A DNA stretch of 63,007 nucleotides, filler included, from Licmophora abbreviata (Eukaryota): NCBI GenBank assembly GCA_900291995.1. It is 10 parts of 10 records of this genome, joined end to end, with 100 filler letters (N's around TTAATTAATTAA, not from the genome) between each part and the next. Parts side by side here need not be neighbours in the genome. Positions count along the whole stretch, not along the records: positions 14,371 to 25,189 come from OLMU01002139.1; 9 more parts are not named here. The stretch is one strand, 5' to 3'. Shown here piece by piece: positions 9,993 through 60,530 of the stretch. The translations under genes and the position numbers were made by a program. Numbering within the stretch: the first letter of the stretch is position 1; every line of letters begins with the position of its first letter. Under the pieces are notes generated by a model, which saw only the letters and a list, made by a program, of their open reading frames with translations, was not told where the DNA came from and ran no database searches.

Positions 9993-10092
9993 NNNNNNNN
10001 NNNNNNNNNNNNNNNNNNNNNNNNNNNNNNNNNNNNTTAATTAATTAANNNNNNNNNNNNNNNNNNNNNNNNNNNNNNNNNNNNNNNNNNNN
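9993..10092. other. Artificial scaffold linker N44-TTAATTAATTAA-N44 (also at 14271-14370, 25190-25289, 31244-31343, 48252-48351, 51149-51248, 52555-52654, 56508-56607, 60293-60392)
   Basis: Identical 100-nt spacer with a six-frame stop cassette, nine copies. Confidence 0.99.
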
Positions 10093-14131: not shown

Positions 14132-14370
14132 CTTCGGGGATATTGTGATGGCAATCGACGTTGCAGTCGTCGCGTCACTCTTTTACTTTTGTGAGATACC
14201 GCCTGGTATCATACCATCAAAGTTCAAAGTTCGCGGATTGAGTCACGCGTGAGTGAGTCGAGTCATCAGTNNNNNNNNNNNNNNNNNNNNNNNNNNNNNN
14301 NNNNNNNNNNNNNNTTAATTAATTAANNNNNNNNNNNNNNNNNNNNNNNNNNNNNNNNNNNNNNNNNNNN

Positions 14371-15128
14371 CCGCCAACTTGAACGACAAGATCTGATATA
14401 CCCGCTTGTGTGGCTGTCATCTGTGCCACGCCTGACTGATACGCGCCTTGAACGTAAAAAGAGGCTGTGATTTGCGAGGCGGTTTTGCCATTGATACTAG
14501 TCGTACTGGAGCTCTGCGAAAAGGGTTCCTGTACCTCGATCGGTTCGCCTAGAGCCTCACTCACGAGCGGATCTCGGACAAGATACGCACGAGCGTCGTC
14601 CAGCAGCTCGTTGACTTGTCGTTGTTGTTCGCCCACGGTTTCAGCCAATGATGAAAGCAGAGGAGCTACCATTCTACCCATCATTCGAATCGGGAGAGGG
14701 GCATCCTTCAGGATCTCTTGGATTCCTCCCGAGATCTCTCTGCGCGTTTCCTTTCGTTGAATCTCGGCAGATCGTTCTGTGTCCGACTGAAACCAACTCT
14801 TGGGGAGAACAGTCTTGGCAGCATCCTTGGCCTTATCCAGGAAGCCACTACCACCACCCTCTGATGCGTAGAGTCGAGTCGTCTTAAGGAGAGGAGGACG
14901 ATACTGCCGAGACAGTAGAAGGGGCTGTGCTGGCATCGCACCACGCACGTCTCGAGTCGCCGGATACTGCCGAGGCGTAAACGCATGCGAAGAGCTGCAA
15001 AAGCTCGACCCGATCGCAGCAGCTGCTGTCAAGTAGAGCTTGCGCCTTTGCGGACGCTGGTGATGCATGCTGCGGCTGAGGGAACGTGCTTTCATCATGG
15101 ATGCAACAGCTTGGTTGTCGTCATTCAT
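14371..15128 (-). CDS. Uncharacterised plastid-targeted protein (C-terminal Coa1/Tim21-like region), 3' end lost in gap
   Basis: Signal-like segment ending 'SSHA-FTP' (ASAFAP-type); 'ALGEPIEV..PFSQSSS..SING' region. Start codon uncertain. Confidence 0.6.
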
Positions 15129-15240
15129 CGTGGCAGTCTTGAGGTGCAATGAGGGCATCTTCGAATCAATCGAATTTCTGAGAAATCACGTCATGAGAAA
15201 TCGAGTGCTCGATCAGCATACGTATGAATTTTTTGTACAA

Positions 15241-15256
15241 GTTTATATATTTTAAG
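15241..15256 (+). promoter_or_regulatory. TATA-like element upstream of the permuted tRNA-Cys
   Basis: GTTTATATATTTTAAG ~35-50 nt upstream of the 3' half, in otherwise ~50% GC sequence. Confidence 0.55.
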
Positions 15257-15290
15257 ATCTCCGTCCTTGGTATCACACGTGGTAACAATA

Positions 15291-15372
15291 CTCGATTGGT
15301 CACCCGTTCGATCCGGGTCTAGTGCTCTTCTTGGGCGCACTAGTAGCTCAGTGGTAGAGCGTTCGATTGCAG
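15291..15372 (+). tRNA. trnC-GCA: Circularly permuted tRNA-Cys(GCA): 3' half (nt 38-73) at 15291-15326, 10-nt spacer, 5' half (nt 1-37) at 15337-15372
   Basis: Acceptor GCACTAG/CTAGTGC (7/7) with discriminator U73; D arm GCTC/GAGC with AGTGGTA loop; anticodon stem TCGA/TCGA, loop TTGCAG|C; T arm ACCCG-TTCGATC-CGGGT. The halves join at position 37/38. Confidence 0.9.
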
Positions 15373-15381
15373 CTCCACTTC

Positions 15382-15387
15382 TTTTTT
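15382..15387 (+). terminator. RNA polymerase III oligo(T) terminator
   Basis: TTTTTT 9 nt after the end of the tRNA 5' half. Confidence 0.75.
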
Positions 15388-15400
15388 GCATCTTGGTCGG

Positions 15401-15600
15401 AAAAAAGCCTGTTGTTGCGGCACCTAGACCTTTTGCAAGTCTGAAATATTTCACTGGGGTATACAGAAACGGCAATTTGACGTACTTCACACATTATACA
15501 GCTGTAACTATATGTGGCCGAGCTAAGAGGCCTTCGATAAGTCGCACCAGCGCGTTCTGCTCCGGTACCCGGCACCGGAACTTTCATGGCTAGGCTTACA
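15401..15600 (-). ncRNA. Candidate structured ncRNA, family unidentified
   Basis: Series of hairpins, some with G-U pairs only on the minus strand; terminal AAGCCT/AGGCTT complementarity; ends in T6 on the minus strand. Confidence 0.3.
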
Positions 15601-15735
15601 AAGGATCAGTTCGAGCTGCCATCCCGATATGCCTATGTATCAGATTGTGGAGAAACGTTGGTAACTAGAGTCATACATCGGGACATCGGGACAGTATTGC
15701 ATCCTGCCTAACTATGGCGTAGCTAGTTGTGTACA

Positions 15736-18585
15736 TTAACTAAGCAAGGCACCCGAACCGACCCGGGATAGAGCACCGGACTTTGCTCCGACCTTTGTTT
15801 GCATGAGATAGAGTAACTCGGCGAGTAACGCACTGGCAGTGGAATCGGCACCAGCGGCCGGACCTTGGACAATCAATGGGTACCGCCTGTGGCGTTGTGT
15901 AAAGAAACGAACGCAGGCGCAGCTAGGTGGAGTCAACGCAAATACGTGGTTGTTGGGGATTTCCACAATTTTGATCTCCAAGCTGTGTGTCTTAACGTCA
16001 ATACTAGACACGTGACGTAGCACGCATCCTCTTGATGCGGCTGCAGCAACGCGTTCCAGCATTTTCTGATCGATTTCTGCCGGCAACGACGAGTAGTCAG
16101 TCACACCGTCATCAAGGATCCTTTCAGTTCGGTCCTTGATCTCGCGTGCACCATAGTAGCGGTCGAGCTTCAGCTCACTCGCCAGAATCAAAGTCATCCG
16201 TGCTGTGTACTCGTTGCCGAGATCTTTCTCTGGATCGTCTTCCATTAGCCCCAATGCAATCGCTTCGCGAACCGCTTGGCTTAGAGAGCATGCTGTGCCG
16301 ACAGAAGCTGACGGCGACATGGAAATGTCTCCATGGAAGGCACCGCCCGTGAAGTCTTCGTCAAATTGACTACACCTGGCGACCTCAGGGGGCGGAGATA
16401 TGCGAAACATAATGAACGACATGGCCACAGACAAGATGCCATCGACACGACGGATCTTGTCGCCAGAATTTAGCAAGTTCCGGAGGGTGCGAATGACAGG
16501 AAGTCCTCCTCCAACCGTAACTTCTCGCAAATATTGTGCGGAGTGTTTGCCGTTCTTCTTTTCAGCGGCGTCGATCCCATCGCGTTGTTCCTTTGTCCCA
16601 GACAGGGCAGCATTGTTGGCAGTCACAACATGAATGCCCGCATTCAGCCAATCGACGTGAAGCATTCCAATATCATCGTCGGCTGTACAATCAAAGATGA
16701 CATGATGGGCACACTCTTCGCTAATCAGGCGCTCCTGGAATGCAGCAAGGTGACCAGTCAGAGTGGTAGCACAATTATCTCGGCTCCTTTCGGCATGCTC
16801 TGCTCCCACTGCTTTGCTGTAAGCGTCAAACGTGATGGAGTCTGTGCCGCCTCTGCAGTCATCCTTGAGGACTACAACTTCTGAGCTCTTTGAATCGTTG
16901 GCAAAAACAGCACAGACTTGAAGGTCCACTTCAAATGCATGTCGAAGTTTTTGTCGCTGCATTTCTAACAGCTTTACCAATGAATCACCGATTTCGTTCA
17001 TCCCAATCACTCCCACCCGCACGGCCGTGTTGGAGAGTCGAAATGCCGCGTGGACGGCTCGCAACGCCCGGGACGATTCAGAAGTCTTGACCACGGCCGA
17101 GATATTTCGTTCTGAGCAGCCCTGGGAAATAGCAAGAATATTGATCTTGGCATCTCCCAGGGCGGAAAAGAATCGACCCGCAACGCCCATGGTGTAAAAC
17201 ATTCCGTCTCCCACGGCTGCGATAATCGAGCAGGGGGACTGTACGTCGACATTGGATATGCGGTTCGCCTTCAGTTCTCGTCGAAACTCTTCTTCAATTG
17301 CCGCCTTGGCATCTTGTGCCTGCCGCTCCACAGTGGCAAAAGTAATGGAGTGCTCTGATGAGGCTTGGGAAATGAGTACGACATTGACTCCAATCCTCTC
17401 CAGAGTGCCAAACATGCGATGGGCTACACCAGGTACCCCAATCATTCCAGACCCCTCCACGTTAATGATGGCCATATTTTCAATGGAGCTGAAGCCGCAA
17501 ACACATTTGTCACTGTCTGTGTGAGTGGTGCTGGACGTGTAAATGCGCGATCCACGAAAGGCGGAGTTAAAGGTGTTGCGAATGTAGATGGGAATCTGCG
17601 GCGTCGCCGAAATGGCCGGTTGCATTGTCTTGGGGTGAATGACCTTGGCGCCGAAGTATGCCAGCTCCATGGCTTCATTATATGAGATCTCAGGCAAGAC
17701 GTGGGCGTTCGGCACTCGACGGGGGTCAGCCGAGAGAACACCGTCGACGTCGGTCCAAATAGTGACATTGGATGAGCTCAAGAGTTTGCCCATGATGGCC
17801 GCACTATAGTCGGAACCATCGCGCTGCAGCGTCGTGGCGACGCCCTGCGTATTGGTGGCGACATAGCCCGTAACAACAAAGTGAATGTTACAATCCTCTT
17901 CAACCTTGGCCTGCTCTAGCTCAAAAACTTGCTGCATTTTTTCGGCCGACGTATCCCAGGACACTGTCCCGTCTTGAATGGCCTCTTCGTCAATCGTAAT
18001 GACCCTTCGGGCATCCAAATAGACAAACTTCGGTTTCGAGGTTGAGTCGGTTTTTCGTTCACTCGCACGCTTCGACAACAAGGCCGCCAGGATCTGTGAG
18101 GACCAAAGTTCGCCGTAACCCGACACTAGTTCCGAAATACGCTTGGCCTGCCACTTCATCAAGGATACTGTTTTGAGAATATCGTAAATATCTTCAATGT
18201 CGGACTCGATGACAGATTTGAGTCTTTCCTGTTCCTCTTCTTCGAATAACGTTTCCAGACACGTACTGTGTTTGGTGAGTATCTGCTGCATGACGCTTTC
18301 GACTTGGACATCGTCTCGCCGCGCCGCAGCTTCGACAGTCGACAGAAGCAGATCCGTCACTTTGGGCTTGCCTCCCATGGCAGACACCACGACGCATAGA
18401 TTCAGATCAGTTCCAGACCTATCCTGAGAACTTGAGTCACTAACAATTCCGAGCTGCTCTTCGACGATCCCGGCTACTTTCGTTATGCATTCGGCATTGG
18501 CGACCGAAGTTCCTCCGAATTTGTGAACTTCCCAAAACTTTCCGGCAAATCCGCGTTTAGAAGTGCTACTGCTGTCACTTGCCAT
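15736..18585 (-). CDS. thrA: Bifunctional aspartokinase/homoserine dehydrogenase (AK-HSDH)
   Basis: 'VHKFGGTSV', 'VVSAMGG', 'TTLQRDGSDYSAA', 'YFGAKVIHP', two ACT domains, 'TVGGGLPVI', 'QGPAAG...TA'. Confidence 0.95.
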   Translation of the reverse strand: MASDSSSTSKRGFAGKFWEVHKFGGTSVANAECITKVAGIVEEQLGIVSDSSSQDRSGTDLNLCVVVSAMGGKPKVTDLLLSTVEAAARRDDVQVESVMQQILTKHSTCLETLFEEEEQERLKSVIESDIEDIYDILKTVSLMKWQAKRISELVSGYGELWSSQILAALLSKRASERKTDSTSKPKFVYLDARRVITIDEEAIQDGTVSWDTSAEKMQQVFELEQAKVEEDCNIHFVVTGYVATNTQGVATTLQRDGSDYSAAIMGKLLSSSNVTIWTDVDGVLSADPRRVPNAHVLPEISYNEAMELAYFGAKVIHPKTMQPAISATPQIPIYIRNTFNSAFRGSRIYTSSTTHTDSDKCVCGFSSIENMAIINVEGSGMIGVPGVAHRMFGTLERIGVNVVLISQASSEHSITFATVERQAQDAKAAIEEEFRRELKANRISNVDVQSPCSIIAAVGDGMFYTMGVAGRFFSALGDAKINILAISQGCSERNISAVVKTSESSRALRAVHAAFRLSNTAVRVGVIGMNEIGDSLVKLLEMQRQKLRHAFEVDLQVCAVFANDSKSSEVVVLKDDCRGGTDSITFDAYSKAVGAEHAERSRDNCATTLTGHLAAFQERLISEECAHHVIFDCTADDDIGMLHVDWLNAGIHVVTANNAALSGTKEQRDGIDAAEKKNGKHSAQYLREVTVGGGLPVIRTLRNLLNSGDKIRRVDGILSVAMSFIMFRISPPPEVARCSQFDEDFTGGAFHGDISMSPSASVGTACSLSQAVREAIALGLMEDDPEKDLGNEYTARMTLILASELKLDRYYGAREIKDRTERILDDGVTDYSSLPAEIDQKMLERVAAAASRGCVLRHVSSIDVKTHSLEIKIVEIPNNHVFALTPPSCACVRFFTQRHRRYPLIVQGPAAGADSTASALLAELLYLMQTKVGAKSGALSRVGSGALLS

Positions 18586-24950: not shown

Positions 24951-25746
24951 CTCTCTATGATAAGGCACGTTCGATGTAATGGATACTGTACGGTGCTTGC
25001 ATCACTGGAAACGCATGAAATGCAGACTGGTCGAGCTCACCAATGCAATGCCATGTGCAATTTTGTCGCCGGTCTGTTGTCGGATAAAAAGTCGATGCGT
25101 TGGGAAAAGCCGCACGCTTCGTACCTCGCGACAATCAGATCAGAGCTCGCACCAAAGCTCGGCAATCGGGAACTAGCAAGCAACCGATGNNNNNNNNNNN
25201 NNNNNNNNNNNNNNNNNNNNNNNNNNNNNNNNNTTAATTAATTAANNNNNNNNNNNNNNNNNNNNNNNNNNNNNNNNNNNNNNNNNNNNAATTCTCTTGA
25301 TGATCACAGCAACTACCTCCAACACACACAACCCTTTCTCTTACAATAGTAGAACATAATTACTTTAATGATTAGCTAGCTAGTAGTGTCTTGAATCTTG
25401 TTGCCTGTGTCATCCTTCGGTCGTGGCGTTGAGAGCACTCCGACATTGCGAATTCGAATATTACCGTCTCGTGTTCTCATTGCTTCCGCCACTCCCCCAT
25501 GTCTCACCGTTTCATGTGAATCTACTTGTCTGCAGCGGCTTGGCTCATACAGTGGGACCACTGTACACTATCAACACGCGATGATAGACATCGAAAGAAT
25601 ATCCAGCTTGAAGTAAGACTGGCTAATTTCCAACGCCTATGTCCCTCTACCTATCGTACAGGTTCTCGTTAGTGCCGATCCACTCTCATATATCATCTCG
25701 GTCCTTTTGGGACGATCCCATTCCCTCTGGCTCTAGAGTAGTAACA

Positions 25747-30800: not shown

Positions 30801-32660
30801 TCCTGCGGGCGCTCTCCAAGGGTGGCTTCGACGATCTGCTGGAGCGAATAGGTACATATTTCGGCTATGACGGATTGGTTGCGTATCATCTTACCTTTAT
30901 CGCAGTGTCGCACTGCCAGAAAGGGTATGTACACTTTGATATCGATTCGATCGGTGGCCAGATGTTCAACGTTATCGGTAAGCGAGCGGAACAAGCAGAT
31001 TTAGATCTCATTGCAAAACGAGGGTGTGGTTCGACCCCATACTAACAGCATACATCATGTCTTTTACACAGTGCCGTTGATCCTAGCTAGTGAAACTGGA
31101 CCCGAACTCGAAATTCTGGACCAGGACTCGAACTTCCTGGGAGGGTACAAGTACGAGGACAACGTTGCCATCATGGTAGGCGACAGCGCTATGGTGAGTA
31201 CAAACTTTACCCAGCAGTTGATGCAAACAAGCCTCTTTTCATGNNNNNNNNNNNNNNNNNNNNNNNNNNNNNNNNNNNNNNNNNNNNTTAATTAATTAAN
31301 NNNNNNNNNNNNNNNNNNNNNNNNNNNNNNNNNNNNNNNNNNNTCCTGGGAGGGTACAAGTACGAGGACAACGTTGCCATCATGGTAGGCGACAGCGCTA
31401 TGGTGAGTACAAACTTAACCCAGCAGTTGACGCAAACAAGCCTCTTTTCATGTCTAGCCTCTACATCTGCGCGTGAGCCACTCATGCATTTTTTTCTTGC
31501 GACTCGACTACAGCACGCAACTGGAGCGGTAGACTACCGATATACTGGCGAATTGCGTCTTGCAGCGACAATCTACATCGCGACGCAAACGAAGACAATG
31601 CTGCTGACATTATGAAGGCTTTCACTCAAGATTATCCCAGGTCGGGTGACACACAGTTTCTGCTCGATCGCGCTGGTTCTCATTGGAAGAAGGGCGACCC
31701 GAGTAAAAAGCTTCCAGCTCCAATTGGTGATTTTTCGGCTCCTCCGCTGAAGAGCAAGAAATATCGCAGATCACTTGGGCGTCTAATGGGGAGCCAGTGA
31801 CAGAGTATGCGTTTAGAGTCGGATTGCCAGAGACTCTCGGACCGGCTCTTCTGCGCTACTGTGATAGAATTGGGATCACCGAGAAGTACAGGTCCCTGGA
31901 AATCAATGGTAACCCGCTCGAACCTGGACACAATCAGTACATGCAGTTCGGTGGACACAACTGGTATATCCAGAGACCAGACAACTACTGGCATTCCAAC
32001 ATGCATTGGTAAGTACCTGAAGGAGTATGTTGGTGCCGATCTTCGTAAGCCATCTTGTGCTCAGGGCTGACGCTGTGACCGCTATCCATGCCCAGGATCT
32101 CCCCCGCCGACGAAGACGCTCACAACGACTATCTCAAAGCCCTATCCGCCGGTGGTTTTGACGAAGTTCTCGCGAGTATGGGGGTGTACTTCGGCTTGGA
32201 TGGCTTATCCTGCTTTCACATAACATTCATTGCTGTCTCGAAGTGCCAGCGTGGGTACATGCACCATGATTTCGTAGAAGTGGATGGCAAAGCCTTCAAC
32301 ATTATCATTCCACTCATTCTCGCAAACGAGACAGGTCCTGAATTGGACATTCAATCGAGCGACTTCAACATGGTGGGCGGATACCGCTACGAATACAACG
32401 TGGCGAGCGCCGTCGGAGACTCGGCCTACCATGCGACTGGTGACTGTGACTATACCAGCACGGGTGAAATGCGGATGGCGGCAACGATTTACATGGCAGA
32501 TGTCAATGAAAAGAATGCGCAAGGTATTGTGGACGACTTCACACAGGCATATCCGCCCCGAGACTTGGACTACTTGATGGAACGCAGGGGCAATCACTGG
32601 AGTCGCACCGATCCCTCGAAGCGACTGCCCAGACCAGACGCCGTCCACCAAGAGCTGTAG
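27828..32660 (+). CDS. Secretory-pathway protein with two SET-like domains and three 2OG-Fe(II) dioxygenase-like repeats; C-terminal HQEL
   Basis: Signal peptide; SET motifs 'GLGLYT...AMRDIQAGEELL' and 'GQGAFATR...FINHN...ALRDIQDGEEIFLDYG'; three repeats with HxD...H...R. Introns 29749-29845, 30239-30323, 30978-31071, 31194-31513 (spans gap), 32009-32095. Two 1-nt frameshifts at ~31580 and ~31755. Confidence 0.8.
31135..31452 (+). repeat. 109-bp duplication across a scaffold gap (31135-31243 = 31344-31452, 2 mismatches)
   Basis: Direct comparison: TTTAC/TTAAC and GATGC/GACGC differences, both intronic. Confidence 0.9.
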
Positions 32661-48181: not shown

Positions 48182-48520
48182 GCTGTATTCAACGAGTCTA
48201 CCAGTAGAGCAAGAGATGGAAGTGAAGTAGCACTGCGTTACCGATATCCGGNNNNNNNNNNNNNNNNNNNNNNNNNNNNNNNNNNNNNNNNNNNNTTAAT
48301 TAATTAANNNNNNNNNNNNNNNNNNNNNNNNNNNNNNNNNNNNNNNNNNNNGAGAACATGGTTTCCAATGATATTTTACCCACGTTTCAAATCTACGGCC
48401 ATGAGCGGTTGTATCTGTCAGTCTGTCCACACAGTTTGTTCGCGAATCTTCGTCTCCCCCACAGCTATTGCAGTGTCTCTCTCAATACTCAATCATCATC
48501 CTACGTTGTGTTTCTTATAA

Positions 48521-51130: not shown

Positions 51131-51804
51131 AATATATGCTACATAGCTNNNNNNNNNNNNNNNNNNNNNNNNNNNNNNNNNNNNNNNNNNNNTTAATTAA
51201 TTAANNNNNNNNNNNNNNNNNNNNNNNNNNNNNNNNNNNNNNNNNNNNACCTCATGATGGTGTTTCCTGTCTTGGCGCGGATAGCTACACGTCACACTTC
51301 TTGAATGTTGTCGAATTGATGATGAGTGACGCATAATTTCAAATTCGCGACTTGAACTTCGACGACAAGGTGTTGAGTGAGTCAGTCTTGGCAGGGAGAC
51401 GCGGAGACTCGGATCTCACGATCAGCTCGCGACTTTTACGTGATGAGTCTTGTCCATTTATTCCCGATTGTATGTAGTATAATCAATATACAAACTTCAG
51501 TCACAAGACGTATCATTGATTGAAATCAAATTACCAAACTACATATCTATAGGTATATCATTCAAAATTATGTCAAATGAACCTAAGCTCAACGGAAGAA
51601 TCAATGGGAAGTGGGCACCCAAATCACAAGTTCCACTCGAAAAATTGAGAGAGCACAACGCATGAACGCCGAATGCACCTTGTTGCTTGTTACAGACTGC
51701 GTTTACTCCCTCGTTTGCGCTGCCACCACCTTGTCGCGCTTGAACAACCCCTTACTATCTACTGAAGAGACTATATATACAATTGATCCATTGAAAAATT
51801 CGAA

Positions 51805-53832
51805 ATGACGTCGAGAAATTCAACATTGGCACGATCGCGTATCGTGCGAAGTCTATGCCTGCTGGGCTCTCTTGTAATGCTCTCCAACGCAGCCACTCCT
51901 CGCCACCGCGGGGGGCGTCGCAAGCTCGGAATTCTCGATGGCAGCTTGGCATGGCAGCACGGAGCGCCTCCCGACCTCTTCGCCGATGAGAGCGACGAGC
52001 ATTCGCCATTGGTTCCTGCTTCCCCACAGACACCGCGGGCACCCGGACCAGGACCTGGACCCTCTCCTAGCCCAGGTCCAGGAGTATCGCCTAAACTAGG
52101 ACCGGGATCCTCTCCAAGTGCGGGACCTAGCAGCAAAGGACCAGGATCCTCTCCGAGTCTGGGACCTAGCAGCAAGGGATCCCCATCGAGTCCGGGACCG
52201 AGCAGCAAGGGATCAGGATCCTCTCCGAGTCCGGGACCGAGCAGCAAGGGATCAGGATCCTCTCCGAGTCCTGGATCAAGCAGCAAAGGAAGCAAGTCAT
52301 CCAAGGGCTACTCGCCAACTGGCGGCTTCGCGGGATTTGATGACTGCAGCCCTTCGGCTCCTGGTGCGTCACCTGGTCCTGGTCCCGCTAGCAAGGGGAA
52401 GTCCTCCAAGTTTGGATGCAAAGAGGGGCCTCCTGGTACTCCTTCTGGAAGTCAACCATTGACTCCGACCGTCGGCACGCCGACTGTAAGCAAACCGACT
52501 GTCATGAGCCAGCCATCCATGTCTTCTCCAGGAGGGGCATCTCCTTCGGCATCANNNNNNNNNNNNNNNNNNNNNNNNNNNNNNNNNNNNNNNNNNNNTT
52601 AATTAATTAANNNNNNNNNNNNNNNNNNNNNNNNNNNNNNNNNNNNNNNNNNNNATGTCAGACCCAGCTTCGAGCCCCGCAGCCGCGCCTTCGTTCTCCG
52701 GAGCCCAGCCTGACACTACCAGTGGCGATACAGGTTTTGTCTTTGTCGACTGTAACGCCATTGCCGATGGGTCCGCTACTACGGATGGTGATGAGACTGT
52801 CTTCAATCTCAACATGCCCTTCTTCTTGGAAAGCGATGCTTCCTTTGGGACCGTTGCCGAAGACGTGCGCACTGTCTTGCAGAGCGTAGTTGCCCCTCGT
52901 ATTGCGGGCTGTACCGATGACGGTCTCTTGTCTGGTCGTCGTCGCCTCGAGGACTCCACCATTCTCAATGTCTTGTTCTCAACACCATCAATCGACGGTG
53001 GTGACGGTGCGTTTTATGTATCGTCAAGCTAGTGTTGCCTCGCTTTCTAGACGTGATTCCAGCTCACACTGTCTGAAACCCTCTTCTTGTCACAGGCCTG
53101 GGCCTTTGCAGCTCAAACTCTATTGAGGACACCGACTGCTATCCAACTAATACTGGAGTGAACTTTTTTGCGGATGGCGAGGAGAATGACGGGTATCTTG
53201 CACTTCTCACCGCCGAAATGCAGAGAGCTATTGACGAAGGACTCCTGGGCGATATCGACGGTCTTGCTGGTGTGGGAGGTATCACCGGCGAGGACGTGAC
53301 GCCTCCTCCAGACGACGGTATCGCCGGTGCTTCCGACAGCGGTTTTGTGGCTACCGACTCAGGTCTCAGCACTGGAGGAAAGGTAGGAATTGCCATGGGA
53401 GCACTGGCCCTTGTCTTGTTGCTGGTCTTGCTTGTGCGTCGCCGTCGCAACAGGCAAGACCGCGCAGTGAAATATTTCGACTATGACGACGAAAATATCT
53501 TGTTAGATGGAACGTTGGACACCTCTGTGGGTGGAGCCAGGGTTCTGGACGGTGAGGACGATTCCTTCTTGAATGAGTCTGTGGATTCCAGTGTGATTCG
53601 CAACATCCGTACGCTGGAAGGCTTGGAGGATGCACAGAGAGCGGACAATTCTCTGATCGGAAGACACCATGCCGGCCAAAACGTTCACGTTTGCCAGTCT
53701 TCCATGTGCGACATTTGTGAAAAGAGACGAGAGCTCGAGACTGTCTTTGTCAGAACGGGCACGCCTACGCGACCATCTTTGCCGGAGAATGCAAGCAGGC
53801 CGTACGTGGCGTCCGACACGGTTGCGCTATAA
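51805..53832 (+). CDS. Silaffin-like Ser/Gly/Pro/Lys-rich single-pass membrane protein (interrupted by gap 52555-52654; intron 53007-53095)
   Basis: Signal peptide, RRKL and RRRL motifs, SSKG repeats, TM 'VGIAMGALALVLLLVLLV' followed by RRRR, cytosolic HVCQSSMCDIC. Joining across the gap is inferred. Confidence 0.7.
52104..52290 (+). repeat. Coding tandem repeat, ~39-nt unit (GSSPSPGPSSKGS), about 5 copies
   Basis: GGATCCTCTCCGAGTCCGGGACCGAGCAGCAAGGGATCA-like units. Confidence 0.9.
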
Positions 53833-56275: not shown

Positions 56276-56944
56276 GGTCGTTCTCTCGGTGCTTCGCAAC
56301 ATTCGCAGAGCGCGTATTTCATACTCGATTGTTGCGTTTCGAATATGTGTGGAGCAACCAAGATCAATCCGGGGTCTTCCAGTCCGTCTTAGTGTGCTCG
56401 AACTATTCTGTGAAGGTCTCCCGGTGAACAGAGGAGGACCTTCAACGTGAACATTCGGCGTGTGTACCGCCGACCGCGTTTGTCGAGGTTTCCCCTTCAT
56501 GTTCAATNNNNNNNNNNNNNNNNNNNNNNNNNNNNNNNNNNNNNNNNNNNNTTAATTAATTAANNNNNNNNNNNNNNNNNNNNNNNNNNNNNNNNNNNNN
56601 NNNNNNNGTATGTGAGTTTCGAGCGTCACACTCATGACTCGCAATTCTCAACGCTCGTATGCAGTCACGAGCGTCTCAAGTTGAGCAAGACTTAGCGCCT
56701 TGTCACAGTTTGAAGTTCATCACAGTCATCCCCTCGTCGTCGAACGCAAAACAAACAGACCTGCTCTCGGAAAGTCGTTTGATGCCTAAGCTGGCATCTT
56801 CGACAATTTGTCCATCGCATCACCATCCGTAGCTTGACACGATCGAAGACCCTACGAGTGGGACCTTCTCGTTATCAGGGGCTTGCAGTGGTAGCAGCGT
56901 TTTGTTGCCTCTTCGAAAATTGAAACAGGAAATCAGTGCAGACA

Positions 56945-60180: not shown

Positions 60181-60530
60181 GGTCAAGAACTCGAGGCGAT
60201 TGTTATTTCGTCGTCTCGCGGATCGTGCGCGTTCATCTTCAACCAAATTTGCAAATTTGAAATTTGGCTGTCGCGCGCGCCATCCCAAATCGNNNNNNNN
60301 NNNNNNNNNNNNNNNNNNNNNNNNNNNNNNNNNNNNTTAATTAATTAANNNNNNNNNNNNNNNNNNNNNNNNNNNNNNNNNNNNNNNNNNNNCATTCATC
60401 AACACACAAGAATGGTGATGCTGCGACGGGTTGAATCGAATCAGAATCAAATTGAAAATATTATATCCTGGACCGTCTCTTGAACTACTACGAGTAATTT
60501 ACTAGAAATCAGAGGTCTTCTTTCCTCACC

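Follow-up and report, generated by a model that had tools for sequence, protein, structure and literature searches.

A tRNA-Cys(GCA) gene circularly permuted at 37/38 in a diatom-like alga and in related metagenome loci

Can a tRNA gene whose two halves stand in reverse order still yield a tRNA, and do the sequences on either side of it act as one intron split in two? The question is raised by positions 15244–15387 of a 63,007-nucleotide (nt) stretch from the Licmophora abbreviata assembly GCA_900291995.1 (this whole stretch is referred to below as the window), where a sequence-only reading had proposed that the leader and trailer of a permuted tRNA gene form a relaxed bulge-helix-bulge (BHB) splice site. 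Positions 15291–15372 are a circularly permuted tRNA-Cys(GCA) gene with its break between positions 37 and 38. Its layout is that of a permuted gene, with the 3' half (38–73) upstream on the same, plus strand, followed by a 10-nt linker and the 5' half (1–37), and with a cloverleaf on re-joining; the halves re-joined by script give a 73-nt tRNA-Cys with anticodon GCA and U73 (ARAGORN). Judged from sequence comparison, the region 15244–15387 is very probably a functional nuclear gene of a diatom-like alga, made up of the following parts.

15244–15251, plus strand: TATA-like box TATATATT, beginning 47 nt upstream of position 38 (sequence and family survey)
15279–15290, plus strand: leader, the 3' part of the putative split intron, ending GTGGTAACAATA and composed of GTGG (15279–15282) and TAACAATA (15283–15290)
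15291–15326, plus strand: tRNA-Cys 3' half, positions 38–73 (ARAGORN on the re-joined order, alignment, RNAalifold)
15327–15336, plus strand: intervening linker of 10 nt between U73 and G1 (sequence reading)
15337–15372, plus strand: tRNA-Cys 5' half, positions 1–37 (ARAGORN on the re-joined order, alignment, RNAalifold)
15373–15381, plus strand: trailer, the 5' part of the putative split intron, CTCCACTTC, starting CTCCAC (15373–15378)
15382–15387, plus strand: run of six T, putative RNA polymerase III terminator (sequence, and T-run distances in 46 loci)

From C38 (15291) to the discriminator U73 (15326), the 3' half supplies the variable loop, the T arm and the 3' strands of both the anticodon and the acceptor stem; the 5' half, from G1 (15337) to G37 (15372), supplies the D arm, the 5' strands of those two stems and the loop bases U32-U33-G34-C35-A36-G37 (15367–15372). 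In the native order neither ARAGORN nor Rfam calls an RNA gene in the 63-kb window, as is expected because the gene is permuted. A dedicated scan of the window gave no permuted tRNA candidate besides this locus, and no ordinary tRNA was found there.

The evidence that carries the functional reading comes from related loci on metagenome contigs, collected with a pattern of a T-loop followed within 19–49 nt by a tRNA-Cys D-arm and U33-GCA. All family counts are among the matches listed, which number at least 127 including the window. With a permuted tRNA-Cys defined by at least 6/7 acceptor pairs across the gap and at least 4/5 anticodon-stem pairs, at least 62 of these 127 qualified, the other 65 being mostly ordinary tandem tRNA genes, and at least 51 of the 62 were unique loci. 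Rows lacking U73 (L043, L092 and L107) and two L023 rows with cut flanks were dropped to leave 46 loci; 45 of them (L095, with an odd anticodon loop, was left out) were aligned as 43 distinct rows representing 27 distinct mature tRNAs. The linkers of the accepted loci measure 4–28 nt, and position 38, which is C in the window, is T in 36/46 loci.

Across the 43 rows, the stems that can form only between the two halves are almost completely paired: 99.7% of cells in the acceptor stem, with both-side changes at six of the seven pairs, and 99.1% in the anticodon stem, with both-side changes at four of the five. The T stem behaves similarly (99.5% of cells, both-side changes at 4/5 pairs) and the D stem is invariant. 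Five whole-structure measures were reached by none of 500 shuffles, slid registers pair in just 27–45% of cells, and RNAalifold, run de novo, returns the same permuted cloverleaf with 21 pairs, 14 of them with compensatory changes. Selection has kept the cross-half stems, and their nearly full pairing, the compensating changes and the agreement of RNAalifold rule out debris for the family.

For the window itself, the rival explanation is debris: an ordinary tRNA-Cys gene would have been duplicated in tandem and have left, as a dead remnant, the 3' half of the first copy and the 5' half of the second, with flanks that pair by chance. Such an origin would account for the first three bases of the trailer, CTC (15373–15375), which are a copy of positions 38–40 (15291–15293), and decay would account for the U/U at pair 27:43 (15362 and 15296), which occurs in no other lineage, is the sole non-standard cell at that pair among the 43 rows and counts against a working gene; the single-locus statistics given below are also weak. 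Set against this are the same permuted arrangement beside the same neighbours in three metagenome loci (L010, L024 and L008), although the neighbour proteins are just 35–63% identical, the covariation of the cross-half stems with U73 and the anticodon GCA retained, a TATA-like box and a T-run in place, and 63 kb with no other permuted candidate or ordinary tRNA. A remnant is therefore highly improbable, and the earlier inference of a functional gene rather than debris is borne out by the conservation of the cross-half stems and by the synteny with the three loci.

The CTC repeat makes the junction formally ambiguous, as the sequence-only reading had pointed out. Three other formal junctions are possible; the ambiguity is harmless to the product, since every possible junction gives one identical mature sequence. 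In sequencing run X1, a contig of another organism has an ordinary tRNA-Cys that matches the window from 15343 through CTC and then continues into a normal 3' half; the repeat and this contig are each consistent with the permuted gene having arisen by tandem duplication. In the four sequencing runs examined, the organism of the window is present at trace depth only, none of its contigs spans the tRNA locus and no joint was seen; the pieces at 15343–15375 are ordinary tRNA-Cys genes of other organisms.

Every base named in the sequence-only reading was confirmed by reading 15000–15700, and the pairings that it drew between the flanks can all form. U32, U33 and G34 can pair with A15288, A15287 and C15286, leaving U15289-A15290-C38 as a 3-nt bulge, and C15375–C15378 (CCAC) can pair with G15282–G15279 (GTGG); C35 faces A15285 in a mismatch, so that the central helix has three of its four pairs. 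One further pair, A15284:U15374, is possible beyond the set first described, with U15283 bulged and with a 3-nt 5' bulge, A36-G37-C15373, that mirrors the 3' bulge. The structure is a near-canonical BHB, with one C/A mismatch in a central helix of four base pairs (bp) and a one-base bulge in the outer helix, and the original label of 'relaxed' suits it. It departs from the strict archaeal form hBHBh' (two 3-nt bulges, exactly 4 bp between them and two flanking helices) because of the three central pairs with a C/A mismatch and an outer helix that needs the bulged U15283; some relatives, for example L066, satisfy the strict form. Leader and trailer nevertheless supply a BHB-like motif at 37/38, the site of the eukaryotic endonuclease at a fixed distance from the mature domain, and the anticodon-intron pair 32:−3 (U32:A15288) stands with its 3-nt bulge, a pair kept in 32/43 rows.

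Taken singly, the locus is modest evidence. In 5000 shuffles of the flanks, at least 3/4 central pairs with −3:32 paired arose in 20.5%, an outer duplex of −5.6 kcal/mol or better in 7.9% and both features in 1.0%, and central and outer features occurred jointly at 7.7% of 4848 random places in the window. The motif at this one locus is weak to moderate evidence above chance, and the case for more than chance rests on the family comparison.

Across the family, leader positions −6 to −3 offer the anticodon-loop bases C35-G34-U33-U32 four of four pairs in 25/46 loci and three of four in 12/46, the window being among the 12. Counted per distinct tRNA, 14 of the 27 lineages have four pairs, eight have three and five have fewer. 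The central helix is paired in 82.0% of cells over the 43 rows, compared with 16–39% when the partners are slid. The commonest sequence at −6 to −3 is GCAA (14/46), followed by GCAG (5) and GCGA (4), with TGAA, GTAA, GCAC, GCGT, ACAA and ACAT in two loci each, and the bases that preserve pairing predominate, with a purine (A/G) at −4 in 43/46, a pyrimidine (C/T) at −5 in 41/46 and G at −6 in 32/46. In three rows the 32:−3 pair has switched from U:A to C:G. The proposal that the flanks are an intron split in two is thus supported by the comparison of related loci, most strongly for the helix between anticodon loop and leader and for the 3-nt bulge.

The leader of the window, GGTAACAATA, holds two overlapping complements of UUGC, and the central helix could in principle be built in another register, in which G15282-U15283-A15284-A15285 pairs with C35-G34-U33-U32 (4/4, with one G:U), leaving a 6-nt 3' bulge and an outer helix of CAC:GUG only. 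L066 and L008 lend this some credit, as they carry GGTAATC and GTAA is their central helix. The family complement, in contrast, sits at −6 to −3 and so leaves a 3-nt bulge, whereas each of eight other registers gives 4/4 pairing in 0–7 of the 46 loci; L049 shares the AACAATA leader end of the window with no GTAA upstream; and the eukaryotic enzyme, as described in PMC3978253, reads a 3-nt bulge together with the 32:−3 pair. The alternative register is very unlikely for the window.

GCAA or CAA might instead be a plant-type RNA polymerase III initiator (CAA at −1 to −10), its pairing with the anticodon loop being incidental. Flowering-plant tRNA genes are described as having CAA triplets at −1 to −10, downstream of TATA-like elements (PMC3531208), CAA stands just upstream of two ordinary tRNA-Cys genes on loose contig ends of other organisms, and energy folding gives no CAA:UUG helix. 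Against an initiator stand a complement held in one fixed register relative to the junction, G opposite C35 at −6, variants (GCAG, GCGA, GTAA) that maintain pairing and a base at −3 that follows C32 in the three rows noted above. GCAA also persists where a tRNA-Ala gene ends only 6–7 nt upstream of position 38, and is therefore not a start site in those loci. The tRNA genes of Phaeodactylum tricornutum, as reported in PMC3531208, have an AT-rich region at −30 to −40 and no conserved CAA, and the TATA-like box of the window lies 42–44 nt upstream of CAA, apparently a longer spacing than usual. A promoter role for the motif is accordingly very unlikely, and pairing with the anticodon loop is preferred.

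In six loci (L004, L048, L084, L028, L113 and L006, the sequence of L048 being equal to that of L004) the permuted gene is immediately preceded, on the same strand, by a tRNA-Ala(UGC) gene. Between the end of that gene and position 38 lie 6 nt (L004, L084), 7 nt (L028), 12 nt (L113) or 20 nt (L006), and four of the five distinct loci (L004, L084, L028 and L006) carry GCAA at −6 to −3. The tRNA-Ala and the permuted tRNA-Cys look like one transcription unit, in which the leader can shrink to the 4-nt helix strand and two bulge bases.

The outer helix leaves a fainter trace. In the strict register (−7:+2 to −10:+5) 51.7% of cells are paired, compared with 39.1 ± 3.0 in shuffles (0/500), and the covariation score of 0.352 exceeds the 0.165 of shuffles (0/500 reach it); slid registers pair in 31–47% of cells, with 10–19 cells showing changes on both sides versus 35 in the strict register. 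The pair −7:+2 is preserved in 33/43 rows through five pair types. The predicted outer helix, weaker than the central helix, appears real at the family level, and in our reading the central helix with its 3-nt 3' bulge would be the constant requirement and the outer helix an optional clamp. This combination matches the eukaryotic 37/38 hBH form described in PMC3978253.

Several observations weigh against a functional gene with this splice signal. In the window the central helix is 3/4 and the outer helix requires a bulged U. The unconstrained fold of 15270–15387, proposed earlier as a check, reached −31.8 kcal/mol (z = −0.86) and lacked both the cloverleaf and the motif. Once the cloverleaf is imposed (−29.2 kcal/mol), the minimum-energy structure gains exactly GUGG:CCAC and still shows no 3-bp CAA:UUG helix. 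RNAalifold, which predicts the cloverleaf, predicts neither flank helix. The shuffle control for the central helix is uninformative, since the loop side is nearly invariant (60/500 shuffles reach the observed pairing). Matched leader-trailer duplexes are not significantly better than mismatched ones over the 46 loci (−2.3 vs −1.54 kcal/mol; Wilcoxon p = 0.33), the duplexes of only 6/46 loci beat every mismatched control, and the −5.6 kcal/mol duplex of the window is equalled by 11% of foreign trailers. The outer helix is uneven, being absent from many loci with very short trailers, and many of the loci are related to one another, which makes the counts non-independent. The anatomy, conservation, covariation and synteny of the gene are observed, and from them we infer every step of the pathway set out below, including an RNA polymerase III start near 15274–15277, upstream of GTGG, that is placed by TATA spacing only.

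The locus carries transcription signals of its own, a TATA-like element and a T-run, as sequence, from which their function is predicted. The box at 15244–15251 is likely to be an upstream RNA polymerase III promoter element, as would fit the TATA-like element described upstream of permuted tRNA genes in Cyanidioschyzon merolae (PMC3978253) and the AT-rich −30 to −40 region of P. tricornutum tRNA genes (PMC3531208), and the T-run at 15382–15387 is likely to be the terminator. Among the matches listed, a TATA-like 8-mer scoring at least 7/8 is present in 30 of the 45 loci that have 90 nt upstream, starting between −37 and −47 in 15 of these 30; A+T content in the 45 loci peaks at 0.76 at −40 to −36. 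Measured from the junction, the fourth T of the first T-run is reached after a median of 9.5 nt (46 loci).

In the pathway proposed, RNA polymerase III would start about 14–17 nt upstream of C38 by way of the TATA-like box and would end in the T-run. The transcript would fold into a cloverleaf, with the 10-nt linker closing the acceptor stem and with an anticodon stem that joins the start of the 3' half to the end of the 5' half. The leader would pair with the anticodon loop (A15288:U32, A15287:U33, C15286:G34, with the C35/A15285 mismatch) and leave U15289-A15290-C38 bulged; on the opposite strand A36-G37-C15373 would be bulged, and A15284:U15374 together with GUGG:CCAC would close the structure. 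This relaxed, hBH-type BHB may serve as the signal of the tRNA-splicing endonuclease at the canonical site 37/38, the 32:−3 pair marking the 3' cut. The endonuclease would cut after G37 and before C38, and tRNA ligase would join G37 to C38 into a circular intermediate, from which RNase P and tRNase Z would excise the linker, with CCA added.

The closest parallel is found in prasinophytes, as Ostreococcus lucimarinus, O. tauri and Micromonas pusilla are listed with a permuted tRNA-Cys(GCA) broken at 37/38 (Maruyama et al. 2010, via PMC3978253). The likeness extends to isotype, anticodon, the type II 37/38 junction, a short intervening sequence, the hBH-type motif (the form that green-algal permuted junctions at 37/38 take in PMC3978253) and an AT-rich upstream region. 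Unlike these, the host of the window is diatom-like rather than a green alga, and its linker is 10 nt. Three metagenome loci (L063, L075 and L015) have 59–68% G+C and linkers of 26 and 12 nt that fit the lengths given for O. lucimarinus and M. pusilla in PMC3978253; the tRNA body of the window is identical to theirs at 46–50 of 72 positions.

In C. merolae, a red alga, a route through circular RNA has been shown by experiment, with junctions at 20/21, 37/38, 50/51 and 59/60 (Soma et al. 2007 and 2013, via PMC3978253 and PMC3728597), and tRNA-Cys is not among the permuted genes in the table of PMC3978253. The window resembles these genes in its upstream 3' half, TATA-like box, T-run, BHB-type motif between leader and trailer and proposed circular-RNA route. 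It differs in that C. merolae has several junctions and a route proven experimentally, while here 37/38 is the only junction seen, read from sequence. Ordinary yeast-type introns at 37/38 show the A-I pair, a 3-nt bulge at the 3' cut and a 5' cut in a looser loop (PMC3978253). The window shares the site, the pairing of position 32 with the flank base third from the cut, the 3-nt bulge and the looser loop at the 5' cut; unlike them, its 'intron' lies partly at one end of the transcript and partly at the other, so that ligation would yield a circle rather than a linear tRNA. The permuted tRNA-iMet and tRNA-Tyr of Thermofilum pendens, whose junction is at 59/60 and for which the BHB by itself is what the enzyme recognises (Chan, Cozen and Lowe 2011, PMC3218864; PMC3978253), are likewise permuted halves joined by way of a BHB-type motif, but in an archaeal host and at another junction, and the window departs from the strict hBHBh'. 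Permuted tRNA genes are also established in the Bigelowiella nucleomorph (PMC3978253) and in Auxenochlorella (PMC12633428).

The host and the conserved neighbourhood were read from the two genes that flank the tRNA and serve as synteny anchors.

15736–18585, minus strand: gene for a bifunctional aspartokinase/homoserine dehydrogenase, in convergent orientation to the tRNA; used for synteny and as a taxonomic marker
14371–15158, minus strand: upstream neighbour open reading frame (ORF), divergent from the tRNA, with its 3' end cut by an N run; second synteny anchor

All named proteins among the best 120 matches of the ORF at 15736–18585 are from diatoms (55–66% identity), including Fragilaria, Nitzschia, Fistulifera, Seminavis, Pseudo-nitzschia, Chaetoceros, Skeletonema, Cylindrotheca, Mayamaea and Epithemia, and the top match is an unnamed protein at 73% identity. 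In a tree of 20 rows without an outgroup, the protein of the window joins this unnamed protein among diatom rows; as the tree has no outgroup, the host is 'diatom or very close relative' at most. A prasinophyte origin of the window, suggested by the permuted tRNA-Cys known there, was rejected because the named matches of the neighbour gene are all diatoms.

In locus L010, as in the window, an aspartokinase/homoserine dehydrogenase gene (Pfam) and the permuted tRNA-Cys are convergent; the L010 protein is 63% identical to that of the window over 534 residues and 53% over 232, and groups with Chaetoceros neogracile with 100/100 support. The sole Pfam hint for the ORF at 14371–15158 is a weak Coa1 match below the Pfam cut-off, and homologs of this ORF lie divergently upstream of permuted tRNA-Cys in L024 and L008 (36% and 35% identity, E 8e-26 and 2e-15). 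Other groups of permuted tRNA-Cys also look diatom-like: the named matches of the proteasome beta-5 beside L036 are diatoms and Parmales, and the NFACT protein of L062, L060 and L035 is nearest to clusters whose commonest phylum is Bacillariophyta. The NFACT-domain gene beside the permuted tRNA-Cys in these three loci constitutes a second conserved neighbourhood, unlike that of the window.

Permuted tRNA genes are rare, and the sources consulted list them only in one red alga and some green algae, in a nucleomorph and a prasinovirus, and in a single archaeon. No report of a permuted tRNA in diatoms, Phaeodactylum or stramenopiles appeared in the literature searched, which comprised titles, abstract openings and passages, the genome coverage of Maruyama et al. 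2010 lying outside it, and a stramenopile case is unmentioned in the parts covered of a 2026 review and of PlantRNA 2.0. With the mechanism already known from Cyanidioschyzon and prasinophytes, what appears to be new is the diatom host lineage and the breadth of the family. A wider proposal, which we advance tentatively and hold to be possible rather than probable, is that a permuted 37/38 tRNA-Cys(GCA) gene is old, conserved and perhaps the sole source of cytosolic tRNA-Cys throughout diatoms and in certain other marine algae, that its chromosomal neighbourhood has stayed the same since a Chaetoceros-like centric diatom and the organism of the window diverged, and that it has been overlooked since tRNA finders miss permuted genes.

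If this were true, permuted tRNA genes would extend to stramenopiles, and it could be asked whether the tRNA-Cys permutations of diatoms and prasinophytes have one origin (e.g., green-algal gene transfer) or arose twice, in the latter case both at the sole site that the eukaryotic enzyme can process. Conservation in diatom-like genomes would mean that standard annotation may under-report tRNA-Cys in major ocean primary producers, that tRNA-splicing endonuclease and ligase are needed for a core component of translation and that the permuted architecture is more widespread than thought. The family may also serve as a naturally mutated panel that shows what the eukaryotic endonuclease requires: nearly every member has the central helix and 3' bulge, and the outer helix is dispensable.

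A number of individual loci have features of their own. Three permuted tRNA-Cys copies with identical tRNA bodies lie on one 3.8-kb contig (L016/L017, 410–1517); their leaders diverge upstream of −7 and all three have GCGA at −6 to −3. L123, from a viral collection, and the metagenome loci L045 and L064 share the same permuted tRNA-Cys with a 7-nt linker, GCAA at −6 to −3 and about 29–31% G+C. One record of this group (L123) is named with a giant-virus-bin label, and in L045 a tRNA-Arg and a tRNA-Gly are separated by 2 nt and one ORF matches Bac_rhodopsin (E 5e-24). A giant virus with a permuted tRNA gene may be the source of this DNA. BpV1 and BpV2, which are prasinoviruses, carry a permuted tRNA whose listed isotype is not Cys (PMC3673656), and are a precedent for a permuted tRNA-Cys on L123, with a different isotype and a virus group that is likely different.

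In L015 and L040, T-arm-like sequence (GGGTTCGAATCCC or CCGGTTCGAAAC) lies about 10–45 nt upstream of position 38, where ARAGORN calls no tRNA, and may be another disrupted or permuted tRNA gene. Nine blocks in the window (9993–10092, 14271–14370, 25190–25289, 31244–31343, 48252–48351, 51149–51248, 52555–52654, 56508–56607 and 60293–60392) consist of 44 N, 12 bases and 44 N, and resemble masked or withheld sequence rather than ordinary assembly gaps.

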